From Escherichia phage Cyrano, in the sequence record OV696614: 64,000 nt of DNA; one strand, 5' to 3'. Positions within the stretch are counted from its first letter, which is position 1. The number at the start of each line of letters is the position of its first letter. The translations under genes and the position numbers were made by a program. Under the pieces are notes generated by a model, which made no database searches, had not been told where the DNA came from, and worked only from the letters and a program-made list of their open reading frames with translations. This document shows, piece after piece, positions 2,050 to 57,404 of this stretch.

Positions 2050-3624
2050 ATGGAATTGAACGACAAACAAATTAAGGATCTGGTGGCGCGACGCCACCCG
2101 GAATACGAAAAGAAAAAAGAACATTGGGACTTCCTCGCCAGCACTTACGCTGGCGGGCGTGGTTGGTTTACAGACAATATCTTTCGTTACTTTAAAGAGG
2201 GAGATCAGGAGTTTAAGGAGCGAGTTGAACGTGCTTATCGCTTCAACCACACTCGTGAGGTGGTAAACCTCATCAACAAATATCTCTTTAAAGAAGACAT
2301 TCATAGAAATATCGAAGAGGCACCAGAGCAGATCCGCAATTTCTGGAAACGTGCGACTCGCCAGAATGCCTCTATTGACTCATTTATGGCCGCTATTGAT
2401 TTGCAGTCGTCTATTTACGGTCGCATATGGGTTGTTGTCGATAGCACGATGAGTGGTGATGTTGAGTCAGTAGCTGACGAGAAAAAGAAAGATGCTCGCG
2501 CCTACGCCTACTGGATTTCACCTCAGCAAATGCTGGATGTGGCATGGGACGACGACGGGAATATGTTGTGGGCGTTAATTGTGGAAGTCGCTCGTGATGA
2601 CGCAGATCCTTTTACTTCTACAGGTCAGGAATACCAACGTTATCGTCTGTGGACACAAAACGAGTGGTATCTGTTCCGTGAGGAAGTGAAGAAGGGCGCT
2701 GGTGGAGCAGGTCGCCGTCAGGCAAAAGTTATTTTAGAGGATAGCGGTGAGCATAATCTCGGCGTAGTTCCTGTGTTTCCTGTTGATTGTATTGGAGAAA
2801 GTGAATCACCGTATTTCAGCCCATCGTTGATCGATGATATCGCTTATCTTGATCGTGCGGTTGCAAACTATCTGTCAAACCTTGATGCCATTATTCAGGA
2901 TCAGACATTTAGCCAGTTGGCTATACCGGTACAGTCGCTTTTACCTGGTGATGAAAACCACACTAAAGTGCTTGAAATGGGCACAAAGCGAGTCTTCACC
3001 TACGATTCTGAAGGTGGAAACCAGCCGTTTTATCTGTCACCAGACCCGAAACAAGCTCAGATGATCATCACTACGATTAAGACGGTGATTAACGAAATCT
3101 ACCATTCAGTTGGTGTAGCTGGTGAGCGAACGAAGCAGGACAACGCACAGGGAATCGATAATTCATCTGGTGCCGCAAAAATGTATGACTTCCAGCGTGT
3201 AAATAGCTTGCTTGTCACAAAAGCAGAGCGTCTGGAAAGGGCTGAACGCCAAATCATGCTACTGGTTGCGAAATGGATGGGGGTAGATCTGGACGAAGAC
3301 CACTCTTTAATTGCATATCCAGAAAGTTTCGATATTCGTGGCCTTACTGATGAATTTTCTGTTGCCGAGAAACTGTCATTACTTCAGGCACCGGACTCTG
3401 TACGTCGTCACCAGATGGAAATGCTTATTGAGAAGATTTTCCCGAACATTACTGAGGCGATGAAAAAGGAATTTGATAAAGATCTCTTGAATTTTCCTCC
3501 AAAAAATGATCTAAATACCCTTGAAAATAAGTCAGTACTTACTTATGATCGTGGTGCAGCCCAAGAAAGCGGGCAAGATCAACCCCGAGGGAATGGGGAC
3601 TCATCTACTCAAGAGAACGAGTGA
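2050..3624 (+). CDS. putative portal protein
   Basis: 524 aa, size and position between terminase and scaffold/capsid genes; RBS AAGG before ATG. Confidence 0.55.
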   Translation: MELNDKQIKDLVARRHPEYEKKKEHWDFLASTYAGGRGWFTDNIFRYFKEGDQEFKERVERAYRFNHTREVVNLINKYLFKEDIHRNIEEAPEQIRNFWKRATRQNASIDSFMAAIDLQSSIYGRIWVVVDSTMSGDVESVADEKKKDARAYAYWISPQQMLDVAWDDDGNMLWALIVEVARDDADPFTSTGQEYQRYRLWTQNEWYLFREEVKKGAGGAGRRQAKVILEDSGEHNLGVVPVFPVDCIGESESPYFSPSLIDDIAYLDRAVANYLSNLDAIIQDQTFSQLAIPVQSLLPGDENHTKVLEMGTKRVFTYDSEGGNQPFYLSPDPKQAQMIITTIKTVINEIYHSVGVAGERTKQDNAQGIDNSSGAAKMYDFQRVNSLLVTKAERLERAERQIMLLVAKWMGVDLDEDHSLIAYPESFDIRGLTDEFSVAEKLSLLQAPDSVRRHQMEMLIEKIFPNITEAMKKEFDKDLLNFPPKNDLNTLENKSVLTYDRGAAQESGQDQPRGNGDSSTQENE

Positions 3625-39020: not shown

Positions 39021-39095
39021 GATGGTGTAGCTCAGTGGTAGAGCAGTTGGCTGTTAACCAACTGGTCGGTGGTTCGAATCCACCCACCATCGCCA
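39021..39095 (+). tRNA. tRNA-Asn (anticodon GTT)
   Basis: manual fold: acceptor GATGGTG/CACCATC, D-arm GCTC..GAGC, anticodon loop CTGTTAA, T-arm GGTGG-TTCGAAT-CCACC, 3' GCCA. Confidence 0.85.
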
Positions 39096-39097
39096 AT

Positions 39098-39173
39098 GCC
39101 GGTTTAGCTCAGTTGGTAGAGCACCTGCCTTGTAAGCAGGATGTCAGCGGTTCGAATCCGTTAACCGGCACCA
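39098..39173 (+). tRNA. tRNA-Thr (anticodon TGT)
   Basis: manual fold: acceptor GCCGGTT/AACCGGC, anticodon stem CCTGC/GCAGG with loop CTTGTAA, T-loop TTCGAAT, 3' ACCA. Confidence 0.85.
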
Positions 39174-39181
39174 ACACAATT

Positions 39182-39268
39182 GGAGAGTAGAGAGCATGGT
39201 GCTCAAGCGGTCTTGAAAACCGTCCCATTGCGCAAGCGATGATGGTTCGATTCCATTACTCTCCGCCA
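39182..39268 (+). tRNA. tRNA-Ser (anticodon TGA), long variable arm
   Basis: 87 nt; acceptor GGAGAGT/ACTCTCC, anticodon loop CTTGAAA, long extra arm, T-loop TTCGATT, 3' GCCA. Confidence 0.8.
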
Positions 39269-41089: not shown

Positions 41090-42193
41090 ATGAAAAATAG
41101 CTTTGACAGAGCACGCGCTGCGGAGAACACCTCAAAAGAGGCGATTGAGTATCTCGAAAGAGCATCTCAAATGCAGGCCGTTATGATCTCCCAGGTCAGC
41201 AATGACATGAGATTCTCGGACGCATTCATGTTATTCACTCGCTTATCTCTGCTGATAACAAGACGTCGGCCAGAGATCGCTGTTCATTGTATTTTGATAC
41301 ATGTTTTGCCGCACATTGCCGATGTAAAAGTAAGTGATATTAATAGGTTCATGGTGAACCAACTGGTCAACCCACTAATACTGGATGGCAAAATTGTTAT
41401 GGGTCGCCGCGTTTTCTCTCTGATGAAGCAGTTCCTCAGCTGGTGCGCCTTCCAGGGGATGATCGACGTGTCACCGTTAAACGATATGTCACTTAACAAA
41501 GTTGCCGGTGGCGCAAAGCCCACACCTCGCGAGCGGAAGCTAACCGACGCAGAGGTATGGGTGTTCTGGAATATATGGGACTACTTCAATGTGTGTGCTG
41601 GTACAAAATGGGCGGCCAGGCTATGTCTTGTATCCGCAAGACGACCTGACGAAGTACTGCGGGCTAAAAAAAGTGAGTTCAACCTCCAGCGTGGGGTTTG
41701 GAATCAAGGCAAGAGAAACAAATCAGCCCGTGAGCATTCTCTGCCTTTAAGCACATTAATGCGCACATGCATTGAAGAGTTATTCGAATATGGTAAAGGC
41801 AGCCAGTGGCTTGTGCCTTCGAATAAAAAAATCGGGAAAGATCTTCCGATGTCTAAAGTGGCAATAGCCCAGGCATTACGCCGTATCCTGGAACGACCAG
41901 AACTGATGGAGCTTGAGCCATTTACACCACGAGATTTGCGTCGTACTGCGCGTAGTTACTTCCCAGCATTAGGCATAAGCCAGGAGGTATCACGTAAAAT
42001 CATGAACCACAGTCTTGAGGGGATAGATCGGGTCTACGACCGGCACGATTATATGGACGAGATGCGAGACGCCTTAGAAAGTTTCTCGACGTACATCGCA
42101 TCAATCGTAGAGCAACCGGATTTAGACGAAATTGACCACAAATTTAAGGGAGATCGTCTATCAACAGAGCTTATTCGTGTAAATTTTTCATAG
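41090..42193 (+). CDS. tyrosine recombinase / integrase family protein
   Basis: 367 aa; C-terminal catalytic region with R..R and H....Y spacing (PRDLRRTARSY ... NHSLEGIDRVYDRH) typical of tyrosine recombinases. Confidence 0.65.
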   Translation: MKNSFDRARAAENTSKEAIEYLERASQMQAVMISQVSNDMRFSDAFMLFTRLSLLITRRRPEIAVHCILIHVLPHIADVKVSDINRFMVNQLVNPLILDGKIVMGRRVFSLMKQFLSWCAFQGMIDVSPLNDMSLNKVAGGAKPTPRERKLTDAEVWVFWNIWDYFNVCAGTKWAARLCLVSARRPDEVLRAKKSEFNLQRGVWNQGKRNKSAREHSLPLSTLMRTCIEELFEYGKGSQWLVPSNKKIGKDLPMSKVAIAQALRRILERPELMELEPFTPRDLRRTARSYFPALGISQEVSRKIMNHSLEGIDRVYDRHDYMDEMRDALESFSTYIASIVEQPDLDEIDHKFKGDRLSTELIRVNFS

Positions 42194-43136: not shown

Positions 43137-45245
43137 ATGTCTAAAAAACGTTCCATCAAAGAGGTTCAGGACTTCCGTGACAGTGTAAAACGAGTAGTCG
43201 CTCTCCTTTCAGGTAAAAACATCCCTGTTGCAGAACGAGGGGACGACGCTTATGTACGCTATAACGATGATGGAGAGCCAATTCTCGTAAACATCCCATC
43301 AATCCCGGATAACGCAACACCGGCATTGATGAATGCTGTGCGCGGATTTCTCGATCATGAGGTTGCTCACATTTTGTTTACCGATATTCGTGTGTCCAAC
43401 AAAATGAGAGAAAAAGGACGCGTTCCTTCCTGGTCGCTATGGAATGCCTTAGAAGACGTGTTCATCGAGCGAAAAATGGGTCAGGTCTTTAACGGAACAA
43501 GACGTAATCTGATGGCAACTCAGCGCCTTATTATCGAAAAAGTCTTTAAACCAAAGGCTTCAGAGGCTATTGCTTATTGTGGCAAAGATCAGCGCGCGCT
43601 TTTTCTAAACTTCTTTCTCTGTCCGGTTGTAAGAGCCTGGGATGGCCAAGCACCGTTCGTAGATTTCATGGATGAATATTGGCCTGTCATTGAGAAACCA
43701 ATTTCATTATTAAAAGAACATGGTATCGATGTGGCCGTGCGTAACATGTCTTGCACCGAGGATTGTGTAAAGGTGGCTGCGACCATAGCTAAGATCCTCA
43801 AAGACACTGAAAGTGAAAGCAACGGTAAGGAGTCAGCTCCGGGAAAAACTTCCGATCCTTCAGACGCTGACCAGACGGATGCCTCTGGAGAAAACAATGA
43901 AGATAACGAAGATCATGAGACACCCTCAGCGTTAGATAATCACAAATCTATCAAATCAGAATCACACAATAAGCACAAACATGATAATAATGACAGTGAT
44001 GATTTAGATAATTCTGAATCATCAGAAACAATATTCGATGATACAGAAAATGATAAAGAGGTATCAGATTCTGATGCTTCTGATAACGCGGCGTCAGAAT
44101 CATTAACCGCTGACCACGAAAAAAGAAAAACGACAGAAGACGGCTCTTCAGATATTCCAACTCCGTCAAAAATGAGTCTGGAAGAGGCTTTAGAGGAGCT
44201 GGATAGCATAGAAGATGAAGTCGGAGGCATGACAGAAGATGCTCTATCCGAAACGATTAAAAGCGAGTTAACAGAAAGCTCGAAAAGCGAATACAGGCCA
44301 TACAATCGCTCATACGACTTCATCGGCTCGATTGATCAGGCAGAAGCCCATATCAAACGGCTTATTAAAACATTCTCCGATATTGATTTAGGAGGATGTC
44401 CAATCAGCCGCTATCGCATCGTTCCTGAAGGCAACCAGCTCTTCGACAAATATATTGAAAAGCATCTTTCGTCAGGTGTTTCGTCGACGCTGGCAAAAGA
44501 CCTGGAGCGAGCAATAGCAAGCAGAAACAGAGTTCAGTTTATACCGGGCCAGCGTCGGGGGCGCATTCATGGTTCTAGTATCTACAGATTAGCAATGAAT
44601 GATGATCGCGTGTTTCGTAAAAAAGAAGAATCTAAAGCCGTTAACGCCTGTGTTCAACAAGTGATTGATTTATCAGGTTCAATGAGGGGTATAACGATAC
44701 AATTGGCTCTTGCAAGTGCATATACCATCGCCGATGCCCTTGATCGAATAAATGTTCCCAACATTATCACCGGCTTCACTACATTTGGTAGTCATATGGC
44801 GGCAGGAGAACTTAAGGCTGTCAAGTATGAGTTCTCTCGCTTTGAATCTTTAATGCTACCTATCATCAAAAATTGGAATGAAAAGGTAAATTCTCGCGAA
44901 GTTCGCTCACGTATGGGGTGCGTAGGCTACACATTCCCACTTCTTAATAACGTGGATGGTGAAAGCATAGCCAGCCTTGCATCGTTATTTTCCGGTCGCA
45001 TGGAGGACAGGAAGATCATGCTTGTTCTGAGCGATGGCGAGCCGTGGGCTGTTGGGAGAGGTTTTGACGCTCATTTGCGTTCGGTTGCGAAGCAAATTGA
45101 AACGCAGACTGACATTGATTTGATGGCAATTGGCATCATGACTGACGCACCGGAGAGATTTTACTCAAATCATGCCCTGGTAACGAGCGTTGATAGTCTT
45201 GGTTCATCTGTAGTTACTGAACTATCTCGTATCATTTTAAAGTGA
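43137..45245 (+). CDS. vWA-domain protein, CobT-like, with acidic low-complexity linker
   Basis: 702 aa; C-terminal von Willebrand A domain with MIDAS motif DLSGSM; central Asp/Glu/Ser-rich segment; paired with AAA+ gene downstream. Confidence 0.7.
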   Translation: MSKKRSIKEVQDFRDSVKRVVALLSGKNIPVAERGDDAYVRYNDDGEPILVNIPSIPDNATPALMNAVRGFLDHEVAHILFTDIRVSNKMREKGRVPSWSLWNALEDVFIERKMGQVFNGTRRNLMATQRLIIEKVFKPKASEAIAYCGKDQRALFLNFFLCPVVRAWDGQAPFVDFMDEYWPVIEKPISLLKEHGIDVAVRNMSCTEDCVKVAATIAKILKDTESESNGKESAPGKTSDPSDADQTDASGENNEDNEDHETPSALDNHKSIKSESHNKHKHDNNDSDDLDNSESSETIFDDTENDKEVSDSDASDNAASESLTADHEKRKTTEDGSSDIPTPSKMSLEEALEELDSIEDEVGGMTEDALSETIKSELTESSKSEYRPYNRSYDFIGSIDQAEAHIKRLIKTFSDIDLGGCPISRYRIVPEGNQLFDKYIEKHLSSGVSSTLAKDLERAIASRNRVQFIPGQRRGRIHGSSIYRLAMNDDRVFRKKEESKAVNACVQQVIDLSGSMRGITIQLALASAYTIADALDRINVPNIITGFTTFGSHMAAGELKAVKYEFSRFESLMLPIIKNWNEKVNSREVRSRMGCVGYTFPLLNNVDGESIASLASLFSGRMEDRKIMLVLSDGEPWAVGRGFDAHLRSVAKQIETQTDIDLMAIGIMTDAPERFYSNHALVTSVDSLGSSVVTELSRIILK

Positions 45246-45340
45246 ACAAAACAGCCTTAACGATAAGTAACCACTTACGATAGATAATGATATATTTATA
45301 TAAGAAGTTGAACGCTCATTAGAAAACAAAGGAAAAACGC

Positions 45341-46576
45341 ATGACTACTACTGCACTGCAAAATGAAAAAAATCCTTCTGATTACCTTGTTTGCAAGTGG
45401 TGCGGAAAATCATTTCACTATTTTAAGTCCCATGTAGCCAATGGTAATTGCGAGGGCATTCCTGAGTCAGTAAAAGATGCCGATCCTGACACCGTACTGA
45501 AAATGTACACAACACAGTTTCCAGATGAGCCAACGCTATCGAAAAAGGCACTTGATGCAATTCAAGCTAAACGTGCCGAGCAAAAAAGCGAAATGGCCAA
45601 ATCATCTGGCGTGACCAGTAGCCCAGGCTACACAGGCACAGTTGAGTACAAGACAGATCTGGTCGCAGCTCACGAACTGCTAAATGTAACGGTGAAAGAA
45701 CTCGGAACAAAACGTGGGACGCCGCTCATGGTTAGCGTCAACGTCAATACGCCGTTTCCAGAGTTCGTTCCAGAAGTGAAGAAGGGCTACGTATATGGCG
45801 ACTTCGAACTGATCAAAGACATTTTCATGATGCTTGAACTTGGCATACCTGGCTATTTGTGGGGTCATGCAGGAACAGGCAAATCGTCATTGCCTACACA
45901 ACTATGTGCTTTGCTCAATCGTCCGTTGATCCGTGCCCAACATACAGCATCAATGGAAGAGGCACATGTTACGGGGCAAATTCTGGCGCGTGATGGCTCT
46001 ACGTATTTCGAGCCTGGCTTGCTTGCGCTCGCAATGAAGCATGGCTGGGTTTACCTCGCGGATGAATACGACTTTGCGTTTCCACAGATTCTTGGCGTGT
46101 ATCAGCCAGTGCTGGAAGGTGAAGCGTTGGTCATCAAAGAGGCGACTCCAGAATGGCGTCGCATTACTCCGCATGAACGGTTTGCTTTCATTGGCACTGG
46201 CAACACGAACGGATCTGGTGATGAAACCGGCTTGTACCAGGGTACAAACATCCAGAACGCCGCGAACTTTTCGCGTTTTGGCATCGTTTCGAATGTGAAA
46301 TACATGAGCAAAGAGGCAGAGATCAACATGTTGATAAATGCCGGTATCGTGGATGAATACGCAGAAAAGATGGTTAAGTTTGCCGGTATCGTTCGCGATG
46401 GATACGAAGAACACCTTATCAGTCAGCCAATTGGCCCTCGTGAACTTTTGTTGTCGGCCAAGATTGGAATGATGCGAGGCGACTTTGTGACAGGTATTGA
46501 GCGTTCTTTCATTAACAAACTCCCTTCAGCTTCTGCACAAGCGGCTCGTGAAGTTGTTCAAAAAATATTTGGTTGA
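45341..46576 (+). CDS. AAA+ ATPase, MoxR/CobS-like
   Basis: 411 aa; Walker A GHAGTGKSS, Walker B VYLADEYD; immediately downstream of vWA gene. Confidence 0.7.
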   Translation: MTTTALQNEKNPSDYLVCKWCGKSFHYFKSHVANGNCEGIPESVKDADPDTVLKMYTTQFPDEPTLSKKALDAIQAKRAEQKSEMAKSSGVTSSPGYTGTVEYKTDLVAAHELLNVTVKELGTKRGTPLMVSVNVNTPFPEFVPEVKKGYVYGDFELIKDIFMMLELGIPGYLWGHAGTGKSSLPTQLCALLNRPLIRAQHTASMEEAHVTGQILARDGSTYFEPGLLALAMKHGWVYLADEYDFAFPQILGVYQPVLEGEALVIKEATPEWRRITPHERFAFIGTGNTNGSGDETGLYQGTNIQNAANFSRFGIVSNVKYMSKEAEINMLINAGIVDEYAEKMVKFAGIVRDGYEEHLISQPIGPRELLLSAKIGMMRGDFVTGIERSFINKLPSASAQAAREVVQKIFG

Positions 46577-50291: not shown

Positions 50292-50566
50292 ATAAAGAAT
50301 TATGGCGCTTGTTGAGGAAGTCACTCCTCTTACGCACTTTGTTTTGCCATGCCGGCAGTTAGCTTCTGCCTTTGACTATTCATGCGGCAACCCCGCATTT
50401 CGCCACAATGGGCAATTCACTTTTATGGAATAAACTGGCCGTTGTGTCGATTTAATTAGCATGGCCTTACCATGCTAATTTATTCAACTTGTACAATCCT
50501 ACAAATCTATCCACTCAGGCTTACACCGTCTTCGTTATTGTAGAAATGAGGATCATCAGCGTTGAA

Positions 50567-50782
50567 TCAGCTTAGAGCAACGACATTTGCTGCTGCTGGG
50601 CCTTTAGCACCATTCTCGATAGAGAATTCGACCTGCTGGCCTTCTTCCAAAGTGCGGAAATTATTACTCTGAATTGCCGAAAAATGTACAAAAACATCTT
50701 TACTGCCATCAGCAGGAGAAATAAAGCCAAAGCCTTTATCAGAGTTAAACCATTTTACTAAACCAGTCATTTTATTAGACAT
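50567..50782 (-). CDS. cspA: cold shock protein (CspA family)
   Basis: 71 aa from ATG 50782 with AAGAAGG RBS; RNP motifs KGFGFI and VFVHF. Confidence 0.9.
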
Positions 50783-51111
50783 AGATATTACCTTCTTAAT
50801 TTTGTGAGCCACATAGTGCGGCGAGAATTTGATCTGTATAGATTGGGACTTACTTAGGCACTTAAGGAGGAGACTCACGAAGAAGGGAAATCAGAAGATA
50901 ACACTGAACTGAGACTGCTTTACTAAAACTGCTTACATAAGGTCTGTCTTGCAAACCAACGATGCTATTAACGCATACCCCTTCTTTTCATGCAACCTTT
51001 ATTTTTCAAAGATAACTAATTTTTGTCACCATTGGTTTAGTAAACGTTAACGAACCAGACGATGCCAGACACCTTTACAGAGAACAGATGCCCGCCAATT
51101 GGCGGGCATCA

Positions 51112-52762: not shown

Positions 52763-53791
52763 ATGTCTAAGACATTACTTGATTTGCTTAACAAAACTCG
52801 TGAAGACATTGCCGCCAAACGTGGCAACAACGTTGATCTGACTCGCTTAAAAGACGGCGTCAACTATATCCGCATCTTCCCGAATAAAGACGACCCAAAC
52901 GGTAAGTTCTTCCAGACTTTCGGTATGCACTACGTTAAGTATCAGAACGAGGAAGGTAAAGAAGCAACCAACGCTTATATTTGTGAGCAACATACTCACG
53001 GTCGCGCTTGTCAGCTATGCGAAATGGTGATGGAAGGTCGCGCTCGTCACAAGGGTAACAAAGCAATGGAAGAACGCATCGGTCAAATGCGTGCCACTCC
53101 TCGCTACCTGGTCAACGGCATTCTTTCTGCTCGTGAGGATTTCGCAGATGCTGAGAAATGCCAGTTAATCGAGCTGCCGTCTACTGTATTCGATGATATC
53201 TGCAAAGCAATCACCGAAGACATCGCTGATGATATCGGCAATCCACTGAGCAAAGAGGAAGGCTACGCATTCCTGATTAAACGTACTGGCTCTGGTCGCG
53301 ATACCAAATATGACGTCTCGCCTAAGCGTAAAGTCTACAAAGGCGATATCGAAGATAAATTCTGGAACACCCAGCATGATCTGATCGCATACGCAAATCA
53401 GGCTGATGAAACTCGTCTTCTGTCGACAGTTCGCACTATGGGTCGTCTGATTGGCATCGCTGCACCAACTGCCGCAGCATCTGCACCAGCAATTTCCTCA
53501 ACCGCGAAAACATCGGCTGCGGCACTACCTGGATTTGGCTCTGTCACTGGTCATACAGAAGGAGCGACGGCTGTAGCAACCGCGCACACACCGGCTTCTG
53601 AACCAACCAGTCTGGTTGATGAAGAAATCCTCCGTGCCGTTGAAACTGAATTTAAACCAGAGGCAAGTTCCGCTGCCGTTGCCGTATCAGTCAAAGAGTC
53701 TGAAGCAGTCGCAGCGACATCTGTAGCAACCGCATCTGCGACGGAAGATGAAGGTCTGGATGACCTACTGAGAGAGCTGGACTCTCTGTAA
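52763..53791 (+). CDS. ssDNA-binding protein, T4 gp32-like
   Basis: 342 aa; zinc-binding-like motif HTHGRACQLCEM, Ala/Ser/Thr-rich linker and acidic C-terminal tail EDEGLDDLLRELDSL. Confidence 0.55.
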   Translation: MSKTLLDLLNKTREDIAAKRGNNVDLTRLKDGVNYIRIFPNKDDPNGKFFQTFGMHYVKYQNEEGKEATNAYICEQHTHGRACQLCEMVMEGRARHKGNKAMEERIGQMRATPRYLVNGILSAREDFADAEKCQLIELPSTVFDDICKAITEDIADDIGNPLSKEEGYAFLIKRTGSGRDTKYDVSPKRKVYKGDIEDKFWNTQHDLIAYANQADETRLLSTVRTMGRLIGIAAPTAAASAPAISSTAKTSAAALPGFGSVTGHTEGATAVATAHTPASEPTSLVDEEILRAVETEFKPEASSAAVAVSVKESEAVAATSVATASATEDEGLDDLLRELDSL

Positions 53792-53800
53792 TCCCATTAC

Positions 53801-54796
53801 GTGACCAGTAAGGCGTCTACGGACGCCTTACTTTTTGGAAGGAATGTACCGGTGAATTATCTCTTCGTAGATGGCAATAGCCTGGGTTATTACCACCAAC
53901 AATCTGACAAATTGCACAACGGCGAAATGGAAGTACAGGCTGCTTTCGGCTTTGTTAAGAACGTCCGTCGTTATGCCTCCATCCTCCATGCCCGACCTAT
54001 GATTCTTTGGGATGGATTTAGTGACAAGCGTCGCGACTTTTACCCGGACTACAAGGCAAATCGCGACGACGATCCTGATATGAAAAAGATGAAGGAAGGC
54101 TTTGCTATCCAGAAGCCATACATCCTCAAAATGATGACCGCGCTTGGAGTTACCCAACTCATTGCAAAAGATGCAGAAGCGGATGATCTGGCCGGGCTGC
54201 TGGTATCCCGCATGGCACCGCAGCCAACCGTTGAACACATCTATCTGTTAACAGGCGATAGCGACTGGCTTCAGTTAGTTCGTGAAAACGTAAGCTGGGT
54301 AAGCCTGCGTGAAGACGCCAAAAACAAGCAGGTTAATTTTGAGCAATTTGCGGAGCTGACAGGATTCGCTACTCCTCGCGCATTTTTGGAAGCAAAAGCA
54401 TTACAAGGCGATAAATCGGACAACATTAGCGGTGTTGGTGGCATTGGTGCTGGCGGTGCGAAAGAGCTGCTGCATGAATGGGGAAGTGTCGCAACGATGG
54501 TACGCGGCATCAACGACGGCTCAATCGTGGTTGACAAAGGACGCCATAAGACCGCCTTCAACAAACTAGCGAAGAATGCCTTCAACGAGAAAACAGGCTG
54601 TCGAATGCTCGAAGCGTTCAAGAGAAACATCACGCTAATGAACCTGATTGAGACGAAGTTTCCGCCTACCGAAATCGAAACAATCAAAGGCAATCGTGAC
54701 GTGAAAGCATTCGAGCAACTGTGCTACGAGCTGAATTTCCGTTCGTTCCTTGAAGACCTTGAAGTGTTTGTTCTTCCATTCGAAAGGTATTGCTAA
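53801..54796 (+). CDS. 5'-3' exonuclease / flap endonuclease (T4 RNase H / Pol I N-terminal family)
   Basis: N-terminal LFVDGNSLGYY and downstream acidic clusters typical of FEN family; true start probably GTG 53852 because 53801-53850 overlaps the terminator hairpin. Confidence 0.75.
   Translation: MTSKASTDALLFGRNVPVNYLFVDGNSLGYYHQQSDKLHNGEMEVQAAFGFVKNVRRYASILHARPMILWDGFSDKRRDFYPDYKANRDDDPDMKKMKEGFAIQKPYILKMMTALGVTQLIAKDAEADDLAGLLVSRMAPQPTVEHIYLLTGDSDWLQLVRENVSWVSLREDAKNKQVNFEQFAELTGFATPRAFLEAKALQGDKSDNISGVGGIGAGGAKELLHEWGSVATMVRGINDGSIVVDKGRHKTAFNKLAKNAFNEKTGCRMLEAFKRNITLMNLIETKFPPTEIETIKGNRDVKAFEQLCYELNFRSFLEDLEVFVLPFERYC
53808..53837 (+). terminator. hairpin terminator (GGCGTC family)
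   Basis: TAAGGCGTC-tacg-GACGCCTTA followed by CTTTTTGG. Confidence 0.6.
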
Positions 54797-55062
54797 TGCT
54801 TAAATCGATTATTAATGGCGCTACAACCACCCCCACCCAACTGGCAAAAGAGATTGTCTTTTATCACGGTGAGTACGCTGTCATCGCACTGCCGTCAATT
54901 CTAGGCGCTGCCGGAATGAAAGCGACAGATCGCGAGTTTGGATTAGTCAGCGAGCAGGTCGTAAAAATCCTCGCTCGTGTATCCAGACTCCTTAATCACG
55001 ATGCGATTGTATTCGACGAATCCGCCGCTTTAAAACGAATCAACGAAACAAAAGGAGCCTGA
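54796..55062 (+). CDS. hypothetical protein
   Basis: about 88 aa, ATG 54796 overlapping upstream stop (TAATG). Confidence 0.35.
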   Translation: MLKSIINGATTTPTQLAKEIVFYHGEYAVIALPSILGAAGMKATDREFGLVSEQVVKILARVSRLLNHDAIVFDESAALKRINETKGA

Positions 55063-55064
55063 TC

Positions 55065-57404
55065 ATGGCAAAAGGAAAATCCGCACTGGCACTTGCTCTG
55101 AAAAAGAAAATCGGTAGCAACGACGAAATTCAGAAAGTAACTCATTGGATTGACACAGGCTTTCCTCCGTTAAACAAAGCTATTTCCGGTCGTTACGATG
55201 GCGGTTTCCCATGTGGTCGTATCGTAGAAGTATTCGGGCCACCAAGCGCGGGGAAATGTGTTACCGCAGACACCATGCTGCTGACGGAGCGTGGAATGGT
55301 AACAGTGAAAGAACTGTTTGAGATTGAGGGGCACAAAGCAACATGCACTACTCGCGATGTAGAGCATAACGTTGGACTCATCAATGAAAATGGCGTGATA
55401 GAGAAGACCTCACACCTGACATGGAACAACCGTCGCAAATTCAAGCGTATTAAGCTGGCATCAGGCGGTTATATCGAGGCTACGTTCCGTCACCCAATCC
55501 GTGTGGTTGACGACTTAGGTAATGTCGTCTGGCGACATGCTGAAAAAATCAGTGTAGGCGACACGATTCCTTCAATGGTTGGCACACATCAATTCGGCGA
55601 TCAGCACCTGGATGCCAATATCGCAAAACTGATGGGCTATTTAATTGCTGACGGATACGTGGCCTCTGAAAATTCAGTGAATTTTTCTAACACAGATCCT
55701 TTCATCAAGGATGAGTACTACCGCCTCATTTCGCTGGTATCAGACAAGATGCCAGTTACGAGAAAACATAACGGCTCGGAAGACCATGTGCTGTTTAGCA
55801 AAGAGGTGCGTTCGCTGCTTTTTAAAGAGTATGGTCTGGAGTATGAGAAAGCTGCTGGCAAGCAGGTTCCGTTGAGTGTGCGTCGCGCCAATAGCGAGGC
55901 TCAAATTGCATTCCTTCGCGGCTACTTTGAGCTGGAATGCCACGTCAATGATGGTCGCTGCATTGAGGTTGTGAGCGCGAGTGGGCTGCTGCTACAGCAA
56001 ATTCGCCTCATGCTCCTGAATCTGGGGATTACGTCAACTATCTCTGAAAAACACGTCGCGGGTTATGAAAATACATATTACCGGCTGTCATTCAGTGGCT
56101 CTAATTACGACCTTTTTCTGTCAACGATTGGTTTCGAATCTCCGGCACGTTTATCAGTGGCAACCAAACGGGACATTGGTTTTGACCGCACTTACTCAGG
56201 CTATGTTCCGCACATCAGCGGCTTAGTGAAATCACTCTACGAGTCGCTCACCAAGACCACCCGTGAAGACTACGCTCTGGTAGACCACGTTATTGGCCGC
56301 GGCGATCGTGTCGGAATAGACAAACTGCGAGAAATCTATGTCTCCTTCATTGGCAGAAAGAATCGTTTTAACGAGCATCTGTTTGCACAACTGGCAGCGG
56401 TAATTGGCTCTAACTTGTTCTACGACGAAGTCGTGGCTATTGAGGAAGGTGAAGCACCAACGTTCGACGTAGCGATGCCGGAAACACACTCTTTCTGGTC
56501 TAACGGGATTATCAGCCACAACACATTCCTTGCAACAGCAGCGATGATCTCCGCTCAAAAACAAGATGGTCTGGCGGTATTCCTCGATCATGAAAACAGT
56601 TTTGACGTTGGCCTGGCTGTAGCCAATGGCCTGAACGCAGATGAGGATGACGGTCAGTGGGTATACAAGCAGCCAGATACCTTCGAAGACTCTGTAGAGT
56701 TGATCGGCACAATACTTAAATTGGTTCGTGATGAAGAGCTTATCCCCGAATCAGCACCTATCTGTATCGTGGCTGACTCTCTTGCGTCTATGGTTCCGAA
56801 CTCCAAAGCCGAGAAGTTCGAAAAGATGGCTGAAGGCACTGCCAAAGACAAAGATCAGCTAAACATGAACGACAATACGGCACTGGCTCGTGCGACGAGT
56901 GCGAACTTCCCTACTCTGGCTTTGTGGGCACGCAAATACAACGCCTGCATCATCTTCTTGAATCAGGTTCGCACAAAAATCGGTGTAATGTTTGGCGACC
57001 CTACTACGTCGCCAGGTGGAGATTCACCGAAGTTTTACGCTTCTGTGCGCATCCGTCTCGGTGCATCGGTGATGAAGGATGGGAAAGAGAAGATCGGCCA
57101 GGACGTAGGCGCAGAATGCATCAAAAACAAAGTTGCACCACCGTATGGCAAATGCACCTGGAAATTCTACTTCGATCCTACTCGTGGCCTCGACGTTATC
57201 GAGTCGCTCGTCGAGTACATGCTGGAAGAAGGATACCTGCCAAAGAACGCCAGCGGGCGAGTTGAAATTGGTGACAAGAAATACACCAAATCGCAGATCG
57301 TCGACATGTATCGGGAGAAGCCATTAGCAGAAATCATTGCTGCGTTACAGGCGATAGATGACCGACGAGAGAAGACATCACCAACAGAAGAACTAGAAGA
57401 TTAA
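55065..57404 (+). CDS. recA: RecA-family recombinase precursor interrupted by an intein
   Basis: exteins: GRIVEVFGPPSAGK / TFLATAAMISAQKQDGLAVFLDHENSFD ... KFYASVRIRLG match RecA/UvsX core; 422 aa insert between P-loop Lys and Thr. Confidence 0.85.
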   Translation: MAKGKSALALALKKKIGSNDEIQKVTHWIDTGFPPLNKAISGRYDGGFPCGRIVEVFGPPSAGKCVTADTMLLTERGMVTVKELFEIEGHKATCTTRDVEHNVGLINENGVIEKTSHLTWNNRRKFKRIKLASGGYIEATFRHPIRVVDDLGNVVWRHAEKISVGDTIPSMVGTHQFGDQHLDANIAKLMGYLIADGYVASENSVNFSNTDPFIKDEYYRLISLVSDKMPVTRKHNGSEDHVLFSKEVRSLLFKEYGLEYEKAAGKQVPLSVRRANSEAQIAFLRGYFELECHVNDGRCIEVVSASGLLLQQIRLMLLNLGITSTISEKHVAGYENTYYRLSFSGSNYDLFLSTIGFESPARLSVATKRDIGFDRTYSGYVPHISGLVKSLYESLTKTTREDYALVDHVIGRGDRVGIDKLREIYVSFIGRKNRFNEHLFAQLAAVIGSNLFYDEVVAIEEGEAPTFDVAMPETHSFWSNGIISHNTFLATAAMISAQKQDGLAVFLDHENSFDVGLAVANGLNADEDDGQWVYKQPDTFEDSVELIGTILKLVRDEELIPESAPICIVADSLASMVPNSKAEKFEKMAEGTAKDKDQLNMNDNTALARATSANFPTLALWARKYNACIIFLNQVRTKIGVMFGDPTTSPGGDSPKFYASVRIRLGASVMKDGKEKIGQDVGAECIKNKVAPPYGKCTWKFYFDPTRGLDVIESLVEYMLEEGYLPKNASGRVEIGDKKYTKSQIVDMYREKPLAEIIAALQAIDDRREKTSPTEELED
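55257..56522 (+). mobile_element. intein with LAGLIDADG homing endonuclease domain inside recA P-loop
   Basis: begins with Cys (GK|CVTADT), ends His-Asn followed by Thr (ISHN|TF); internal LMGYLIADGYV and FLRGYFELECHV blocks. Confidence 0.75.

Follow-up and report, generated by a model that had tools for sequence, protein, structure and literature searches.

A predicted class-1 intein with a nested LAGLIDADG endonuclease in the P-loop of a phage-plasmid RecA-like recombinase

INTRODUCTION

Inteins that interrupt RadA and RecA recombinases were surveyed by Topilina et al. in 2015 (Nucleic Acids Res 43:6631, PMC4513877), who distinguished five insertion points. Insertion point c is the P-loop, which is occupied by c1 inteins in archaeal RadA (e.g. 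the Pho RadA mini-intein) and by c2 inteins in bacterial RecA (PMC4513877). Table 1 of that survey lists 'c2 (65-486)' for strains of Escherichia coli (eight), Enterobacter (two) and Salmonella (one), and the c2 intein was treated there by bioinformatics and modelling only (PMC4513877). Here we analyze an insert at the same GK/T site at the end of the P-loop (the slash marks the insertion point) in the RecA-like recombinase gene of Escherichia phage Cyrano (sequence record OV696614), of which a stretch of 64,000 nucleotides (nt), hereafter called the window, was examined. As the residue numbers (65-486), the insertion point and the host species are identical, this insert is almost certainly the RecA c2 intein of Topilina et al. 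2015, an identification made on these grounds and not by direct sequence comparison. The intein is already known, in that it was catalogued in 2015, is named in some RefSeq records and has a PHROG family. Whereas the survey treated the interrupted gene as 'E. coli RecA', the gene described here is found on SSU5-like phage-plasmids and never on the chromosome. As judged from titles, abstracts and term counts, we found nothing relevant to this intein in the literature on SSU5, pHCM2 or phage-plasmids, and it is not mentioned in PMC8914359, PMC8529194 or PMC13476343.

Several described inteins resemble this one in site or in architecture. The c1 intein of Pyrococcus horikoshii (Pho) RadA (PDB 4e2t and 2lqm) occupies the homologous P-loop site, also has Thr at position +1, restores the ATP site upon splicing and has a similar Hint domain (Foldseek E 4.6e-5). 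RadA c1 and RecA c2 inteins share low sequence similarity, and independent invasion of the site has been proposed (PMC4513877). The same combination of a Hint domain with a two-motif LAGLIDADG endonuclease is found in the TliVMA and PhoVMA inteins (7qss and 7qst), PI-PfuI (1dq3), PI-PkoII (2cw7) and yeast PI-SceI (1vde). These give fold matches with E values from 5.6e-19 to 1e-8 and sequence matches down to 6.7e-8, but they are only 10-21% identical and reside at other target sites in other host proteins. The RecA inteins of Mycobacterium tuberculosis (Mtu) and M. leprae (sites a and b; PDB 2in9 and 2imz) likewise interrupt a RecA-family recombinase, and the Mtu intein likewise carries a LAGLIDADG endonuclease, but they sit at the monomer-monomer interface rather than in the P-loop (residues 252-691 and about 205-573; PMC4513877). 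The mycobacterial-type NCBIfam RecA-intein model matches the window protein mainly through its RecA part, and the Hint domains show little fold similarity (E about 1e-3). For the insert alone, the best intein-containing NCBIfam models are those of the archaeal RFC small subunit and aIF2 (NF003157, NF003159 and NF011418, at 1.8e-18, 1.5e-17 and 1.8e-17), with scores far below the model cut-offs and a full-protein match that begins in the GPPxxGK flank. The RFC small subunit and aIF2 inteins, which we presume also to lie at a P-loop GK/T, have unrelated exteins and archaeal hosts.

RESULTS

The insert separates the Lys and Thr of a Walker A motif

The gene is divided as follows (aa, amino acids of the precursor unless intein numbering is stated).

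55065..57404, + strand: precursor open reading frame (ORF) of 779 aa and a stop codon, for the intein-containing RecA-like recombinase of an SSU5-like phage-plasmid
55065..55256, + strand: N-extein, aa 1-64; its C-terminal end is the first part of Walker A, GPPSAGK
55257..56522, + strand: intein, 422 aa (1266 nt), precursor aa 65-486; a LAGLIDADG homing-endonuclease domain splits the Hint domain
56523..57404, + strand: C-extein, aa 487-779 plus stop; Thr487 followed by the remaining RecA core

The ORF is a single uninterrupted frame with no stop codon within the insert. The N-extein aligns with positions 3001-3192 of an intein-less allele (L001), and its terminal GPPSAGK (aa 58-64) aligns with GPESSGK of E. 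coli RecA. The insert begins with Cys65, encoded from nt 55257, and ends with His485-Asn486, encoded up to nt 56522. The next residue, Thr487 (codon ACA, nt 56523-56525), would serve both as the +1 nucleophile and as the Thr of the GKT sequence. Removal of the insert in silico yields a 357-aa protein with an intact GPPSAGKT that aligns gap-free with E. coli RecA over the P-loop junction (grivevfgppsagktflata). The initial annotation, made from the sequence alone, had proposed an intein of 422 aa at this position within a 779-aa ORF. Its boundaries proved exact to the base, and the terminal residues, the two LAGLIDADG blocks and the restored recombinase that it described were all recovered here. 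We conclude, with a probability of about 0.9, that nt 55257..56522 code for a class-1 intein, with a LAGLIDADG homing endonuclease nested in it, that lies between the Lys and Thr of Walker A (GPPSAGK/T) in the RecA-like recombinase of an SSU5-like phage-plasmid, and that it is the RecA c2 intein of 2015.

Splicing blocks, endonuclease motifs and predicted fold

The following elements were located within the insert.

55257..55280, + strand: block A, CVTADTML; Cys1 (nt 55257-55259) would act as first nucleophile, and TIGR01445 intein_Nterm covers aa 65-147
55464..55505, + strand: block B, GGYIEATFRHPIRV, with a T76-x-x-H79 motif, read from the sequence
55629..55661, + strand: LAGLIDADG motif 1, LMGYLIADGYV, intein aa 125-135; Asp132 is the presumed metal-binding catalytic residue
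55911..55946, + strand: LAGLIDADG motif 2, FLRGYFELECHV, intein aa 219-230; Glu227 is at the catalytic acidic position
56457..56498, + strand: block F, PTFDVAMPETHSFW, with Asp404 and His411
56502..56522, + strand: block G, NGIISHN, with penultimate His421 and terminal Asn422; TIGR01443 intein_Cterm covers aa 466-487

The residue set of a class-1 intein is therefore complete, comprising Cys1, TxxH, block F, block G with its terminal His-Asn, and Thr at +1. Block B has the consensus ATxNHPxRV among relatives, and block F has the consensus PTFDVxMPETHSFW in relatives of 28-46% identity. Profile searches of the kind suggested in the initial annotation gave matches to Hint and LAGLIDADG models above their cut-offs. 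Pfam Intein_splicing (2.3e-11, above its gathering cut-off) spans aa 73-486, and the NCBIfam models intein_Nterm and intein_Cterm score 36.6 bits (cut-off 24.5) and 17.8 bits (cut-off 15.6), respectively. Pfam LAGLIDADG_3 matches precursor aa 279-356 at 2.5e-17 (63.3 bits, cut-off 22.5), whereas the Pfam RecA match (3.2e-36, 125.6 bits, cut-off 27) falls into two stretches flanking the insert.

The cores of the two LAGLIDADG motifs, LMGYLIADG (D132) and LRGYFELEC (E227), each contain a conserved acidic residue. Motif 1 aligns with GYLIADG of the TliVMA intein, and Glu227 aligns with the catalytic Asp in motif 2 of the same intein. By its motifs and profile match, the inserted domain is classed as a predicted two-motif LAGLIDADG homing endonuclease.

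An AlphaFold model of the intein, built from a shallow input alignment of nine sequences, had a mean predicted local distance difference test (pLDDT) score of 80.8 and a predicted template modelling score (pTM) of 0.84. When this model was compared with the PDB by Foldseek, the top match was the TliVMA intein (7qss; E 5.6e-19, template modelling (TM) score 0.68), followed by PI-PfuI, PI-PkoII, PhoVMA and PI-SceI, all of which are endonuclease-containing inteins. Lower matches included mini-inteins, among them Pho RadA and Mtu RecA, and hedgehog Hint domains. The predicted structure thus has a Hint fold.

The interrupted protein is a phage-type RecA family member

The spliced recombinase matches RecA chains in the PDB at about 1e-34 and T4-type UvsX at 2.9e-9, such that the RecA/UvsX-family assignment of the initial annotation holds, with bacterial RecA as the nearer of the two. 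PHROGs returned 'UvsX-like recombinase' (1.6e-91). The RecA equivalog model TIGR02012 scored 132.5 bits versus a cut-off of 325.3. Because the protein falls below this cut-off, matches Pfam RecA and is UvsX-like in PHROGs, we classify it, from its profile matches, as a phage-type RecA family member and not a cellular RecA orthologue. Strong purifying selection acts on the extein, for which nonsynonymous divergence (dN) is 0.001-0.03 and synonymous divergence (dS) reaches about 2.

Host element and distribution

The gene with its insert matches Escherichia phage PhiR41_1 (98.0% identity) and Klebsiella phage vB_KpnS_p4727 (90.2%). The C-terminal part (query nt 1456/1468 onward) is matched at 83-85% by Salmonella phage SSU5 and Klebsiella phages, and the matches to phage CMS-2020a are restricted to both extein parts. 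The remainder of the window contains tail genes, a replication module, and genes for a single-stranded DNA-binding protein (SSB) and a 5'-3' exonuclease just upstream of the recombinase gene. From these phage and plasmid matches and this gene content, the host element is assigned to the SSU5-like phage-plasmids, which refines the 'plasmid-like prophage' of the initial annotation.

In PLSDB, 743 plasmids match the gene, 711 of which are non-mobilizable; those listed are about 100-120 kb. Of these 743, 247 (about one-third) carry the intein, with the following distribution among genera.

Escherichia: intein in 122, gene in 228
Klebsiella: intein in 71, gene in 279
Enterobacter: intein in 41, gene in 90
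Citrobacter: intein in 6, gene in 20
Salmonella: intein in 1, gene in 42
Yersinia: intein in 0, gene in 63

Among 5426 complete E. coli genomes the C-extein was found in 219, and 120 of these contained the intein. All copies were on plasmids; none of the 121 places with the intein and none of the 220 places with the C-extein in these genomes was chromosomal. The intein can therefore not be called uncommon among carriers of the gene, as the initial annotation suggested, and the host gene is one of phage-plasmids rather than chromosomal recA.

The identical protein is present in public collections in a 90% identity cluster of 1496 members, where some copies are entered as 'intein-containing recombinase RecA' and some as 'LAGLIDADG family homing endonuclease', and the precursor corresponds to PHROGs family phrog_9666 (779 positions). 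A word-indexed protein search returned 13 relatives of the intein, and an exhaustive HMMER search returned 4681 at E<=0.001, of which 190 reached E<=1e-30. Of the 150 best library relatives from these 4681, 108 were full-length, and 100 of these 108 occupy a GK/C...HN/T or S position, mostly in RecA-type P-loops. The intein therefore belongs to a large family of P-loop inteins.

Sequence changes beside the intein are absent from empty sites

Comparison with intein-less alleles, as proposed in the initial annotation, was possible with phage CMS-2020a, SSU5 and Klebsiella phage vB_Kpn_1825-KPC53. All three differ from the intein-bearing gene by exactly the 1266-nt insert and join precisely at K64/T487. 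The junction and its flanks are described by the following.

Empty-site DNA, example: ...CCAAGTGCAGGGAAA joined directly to ACGTTCCTTGCA..., the GK/T-coding junction
55248..55256, + strand: upstream flank GCG GGG AAA, synonymous codon choices found only beside the intein and read as a co-conversion tract
56523..56530, + strand: downstream flank ACATTCCT, common to all intein-bearing alleles examined; ACA, linked to the intein, replaces ACG/ACC

All seven intein-bearing alleles that were inspected read GCG GGG AAA, then the intein, then ACA, versus GCA/GCC/GCT, GGG/GGT and AAA followed by ACG/ACC in the three empty alleles. The Klebsiella intein-bearing allele differs from a Klebsiella empty allele at -70, -7, -4 and +3, the next difference being at +199. 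In PLSDB, native empty-site 60-mers matched over their full length 237 times (Klebsiella type) and 71 times (E. coli type), whereas 'healed' 60-mers, in which intein-type flanks were joined without the intein, never did so and matched only half-sites in 72 and 66 intein-bearing records. No precisely healed site was thus seen in this 60-mer search. Because all seven intein-bearing alleles share them and no healed 60-mer was matched over its full length, we conclude that the three synonymous flank changes (GCG, GGG and ACA) travel only with the intein. We read this pattern as what co-conversion during homing would produce.

Divergence of the intein is far lower than that of its exteins

The window intein is 97.2-97.3% identical to the copies in Klebsiella, Enterobacter and Cronobacter, versus 79-86% for the exteins and 77-81% for the upstream genes in the same comparisons. 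The corresponding dS is 0.079-0.086 for the intein and 1.2-1.9 for the exteins. Among Klebsiella, Enterobacter and Cronobacter themselves, intein dS is 0.007-0.010 and extein dS 0.9-1.3. Identity between the window and the Klebsiella intein-bearing allele extends for 10 nt beyond the intein on the upstream side and for 9 nt on the downstream side. The reading frame is open in each of the six intein copies compared, at a dN/dS of 0.09-0.22, and the dN/dS of the endonuclease region is 0.18 versus the Klebsiella copy and 0.12 versus the Escherichia albertii copy. That every copy is open and that the endonuclease region has such ratios argues that the endonuclease is under selection. Taken together, the low intein dS against a high extein dS, the flank changes and the dN/dS values form a signature of recent inter-genus homing that is strong, though indirect.

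The intein on E. albertii plasmid p3RM15112 (L006, 1309-3150) is 93.7% identical to that of the window at the nucleotide level (dS 0.24), and its host gene is 98-99.5% identical. It was considered as a decaying copy and rejected as such, since its intein ORF is intact with a dN/dS of 0.09; a second intein lineage is the better reading. A divergent intein in a nearly identical host gene points to more than one invasion. Similarity of this E. albertii locus to the window C-extein ends after nt 313, leaving an ORF of 614 aa for which no coding sequence is annotated. Two E. coli plasmids, pCPWW7-IncF (L007, 3001-4466) and pRHB11-C04_3 (L008, 3001-4125), carry the gene without its 5' part. Similarity begins at nt 683 and nt 1024 of the intein, respectively, and the C-terminal remnants, whose C-exteins are of a diverged type (86% identical), adjoin a DEAD/DEAH helicase gene.

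Alternative explanations

From these population data, the intein is probably homing today among the SSU5-like phage-plasmids of E. coli, Klebsiella, Enterobacter and their relatives. The alternative that survives best, although we regard it as unlikely, is a splicing-competent intein with a dead endonuclease that spreads by vertical inheritance or by ordinary recombination between phage-plasmids. In favor of this alternative, motif 2 is atypical, reading ELEC where DADG or DGDG is usual, and the endonuclease regions of the distant same-site relatives P0007, P0012 and P0013 are degenerate. Both catalytic acidic residues are nevertheless retained in the window intein, and the low dN/dS of the endonuclease region (about 0.12-0.18) is difficult to reconcile with a dead enzyme. 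Neither mode of spread accounts readily for an intein dS that is 10 to 100 times below extein dS between genera, or for similarity that breaks within about 10 nt of both junctions; such tight and repeated boundaries are not expected from ordinary recombination when the flanks are only 80-85% identical.

Several points weigh against the intein and homing interpretation as a whole. Motif 2 has Glu rather than Asp, followed by Cys rather than Gly, although this arrangement is compatible with endonuclease activity. We found no published report of experimental splicing or DNA cleavage by this intein, the second of which would also fit a dead endonuclease. The match to the 2015 entry was made by numbering, species and site. 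The set of alleles inspected base by base is small (seven intein-bearing and three intein-less), and the dS values come from our own Nei-Gojobori script, those above 1 being saturated. PLSDB and RefSeq are clonally biased samples, so plasmid counts do not equal counts of independent invasions.

A very improbable explanation is that no splicing takes place and the mature recombinase retains the insert, either as an ordinary inserted domain or as a free-standing endonuclease gene fused to it. The RefSeq practice of often naming the whole protein 'LAGLIDADG family homing endonuclease' would be in keeping with it. However, none of the conserved splicing residues is missing (Cys1, TxxH, block F, His-Asn, Thr+1), Hint profiles match and a Hint fold is predicted, and 422 aa between the Walker A Lys and Thr would abolish ATP binding in a gene under strong purifying selection. 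The splicing blocks and profiles led us to reject a plain domain insertion. Group I introns, too, can encode LAGLIDADG endonucleases, but removal of the insert at the RNA level as a group I or II intron can practically be dismissed, as the insert is in frame with both exteins and open throughout, its endonuclease is flanked by the two halves of a Hint domain, and no Rfam intron family was found anywhere in the window at the gathering threshold.

Other features of the window

The recombinase gene is preceded directly by a recombination module.

52763-55062, + strand: phage SSB (phrog_1192), 5'-3' exonuclease (phrog_107) and a 90-aa ORF (phrog_2207)

Elsewhere in the window, a cluster of three tRNA genes (39021-39268, + strand) encodes Asn-GTT, Thr-TGT and Ser-TGA. 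The tRNA-Thr(TGT) decodes ACA, the intein-linked Thr+1 codon, which is probably a coincidence. A tyrosine recombinase gene (41090-42193, + strand; Phage_integrase domain, 6.3e-10) is present on this plasmid-maintained element, and its product may serve in dimer resolution rather than integration. Within the replication region, positions 43137-46576 (+ strand) encode a CobT-like von Willebrand factor A (VWA) protein of 702 aa followed by an AAA_5 ATPase of 411 aa, a pair that resembles cobaltochelatase subunits. Just downstream of the DNA polymerase III alpha gene is a full-length match to the Rfam cspA thermoregulator (50542-50960, - strand; 187.6 bits, gathering score 78), which suggests that the phage-plasmid carries a cold-shock-protein gene together with its regulatory leader.

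DISCUSSION

On standard intein chemistry, translation of the gene would produce a 779-aa precursor in which the ATP site is split. An N-S acyl shift at Cys65 would form a thioester with Lys64, transesterification would transfer the acyl group to the side chain of Thr487, cyclization of Asn486 would release the intein, and an O-N shift would generate a 357-aa recombinase with GPPSAGK-T restored. Because 422 residues split the Walker A loop, the recombinase should be inactive before splicing. The motifs and population data further suggest that the freed 422-aa intein would cut the empty GK/T-coding site on a co-resident or co-infecting relative, and that repair of the break from the intein-bearing copy would paste in the intein plus a few flanking bases. 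A more elaborate model, in which homing takes place today, possibly via the interrupted recombination module, and in which conditional splicing also gates the recombinase between the plasmid and lytic states, is one that we consider a long shot.

The initial annotation had described the locus as an active selfish-element insertion site. The contrast in dS and the flank changes favor this description, as population data that bear on activity indirectly. Our analysis adds population evidence for spread to what was known of this intein, in addition to the identification of its host gene.

As a discovery the intein is of small value, being a clear but ordinary example that was already catalogued. 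In practice it could be useful as a model, since the intein is full-length, its predicted endonuclease is apparently functional, and it is native to mobile elements of E. coli and Klebsiella. Natural intein-plus and intein-minus alleles are abundant, and at least one intein-bearing phage, PhiR41_1, is propagated on K-12. Two annotations should be corrected, in that the 'E. coli RecA intein' is in a phage-plasmid gene and never in chromosomal recA, and the common RefSeq name 'LAGLIDADG family homing endonuclease' conceals a recombinase. The presence or absence of the intein could also mark recombination among clinically relevant phage-plasmids. If both homing and conditional splicing were true, this locus would provide a natural and genetically tractable system for studying the two processes in E. 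coli.

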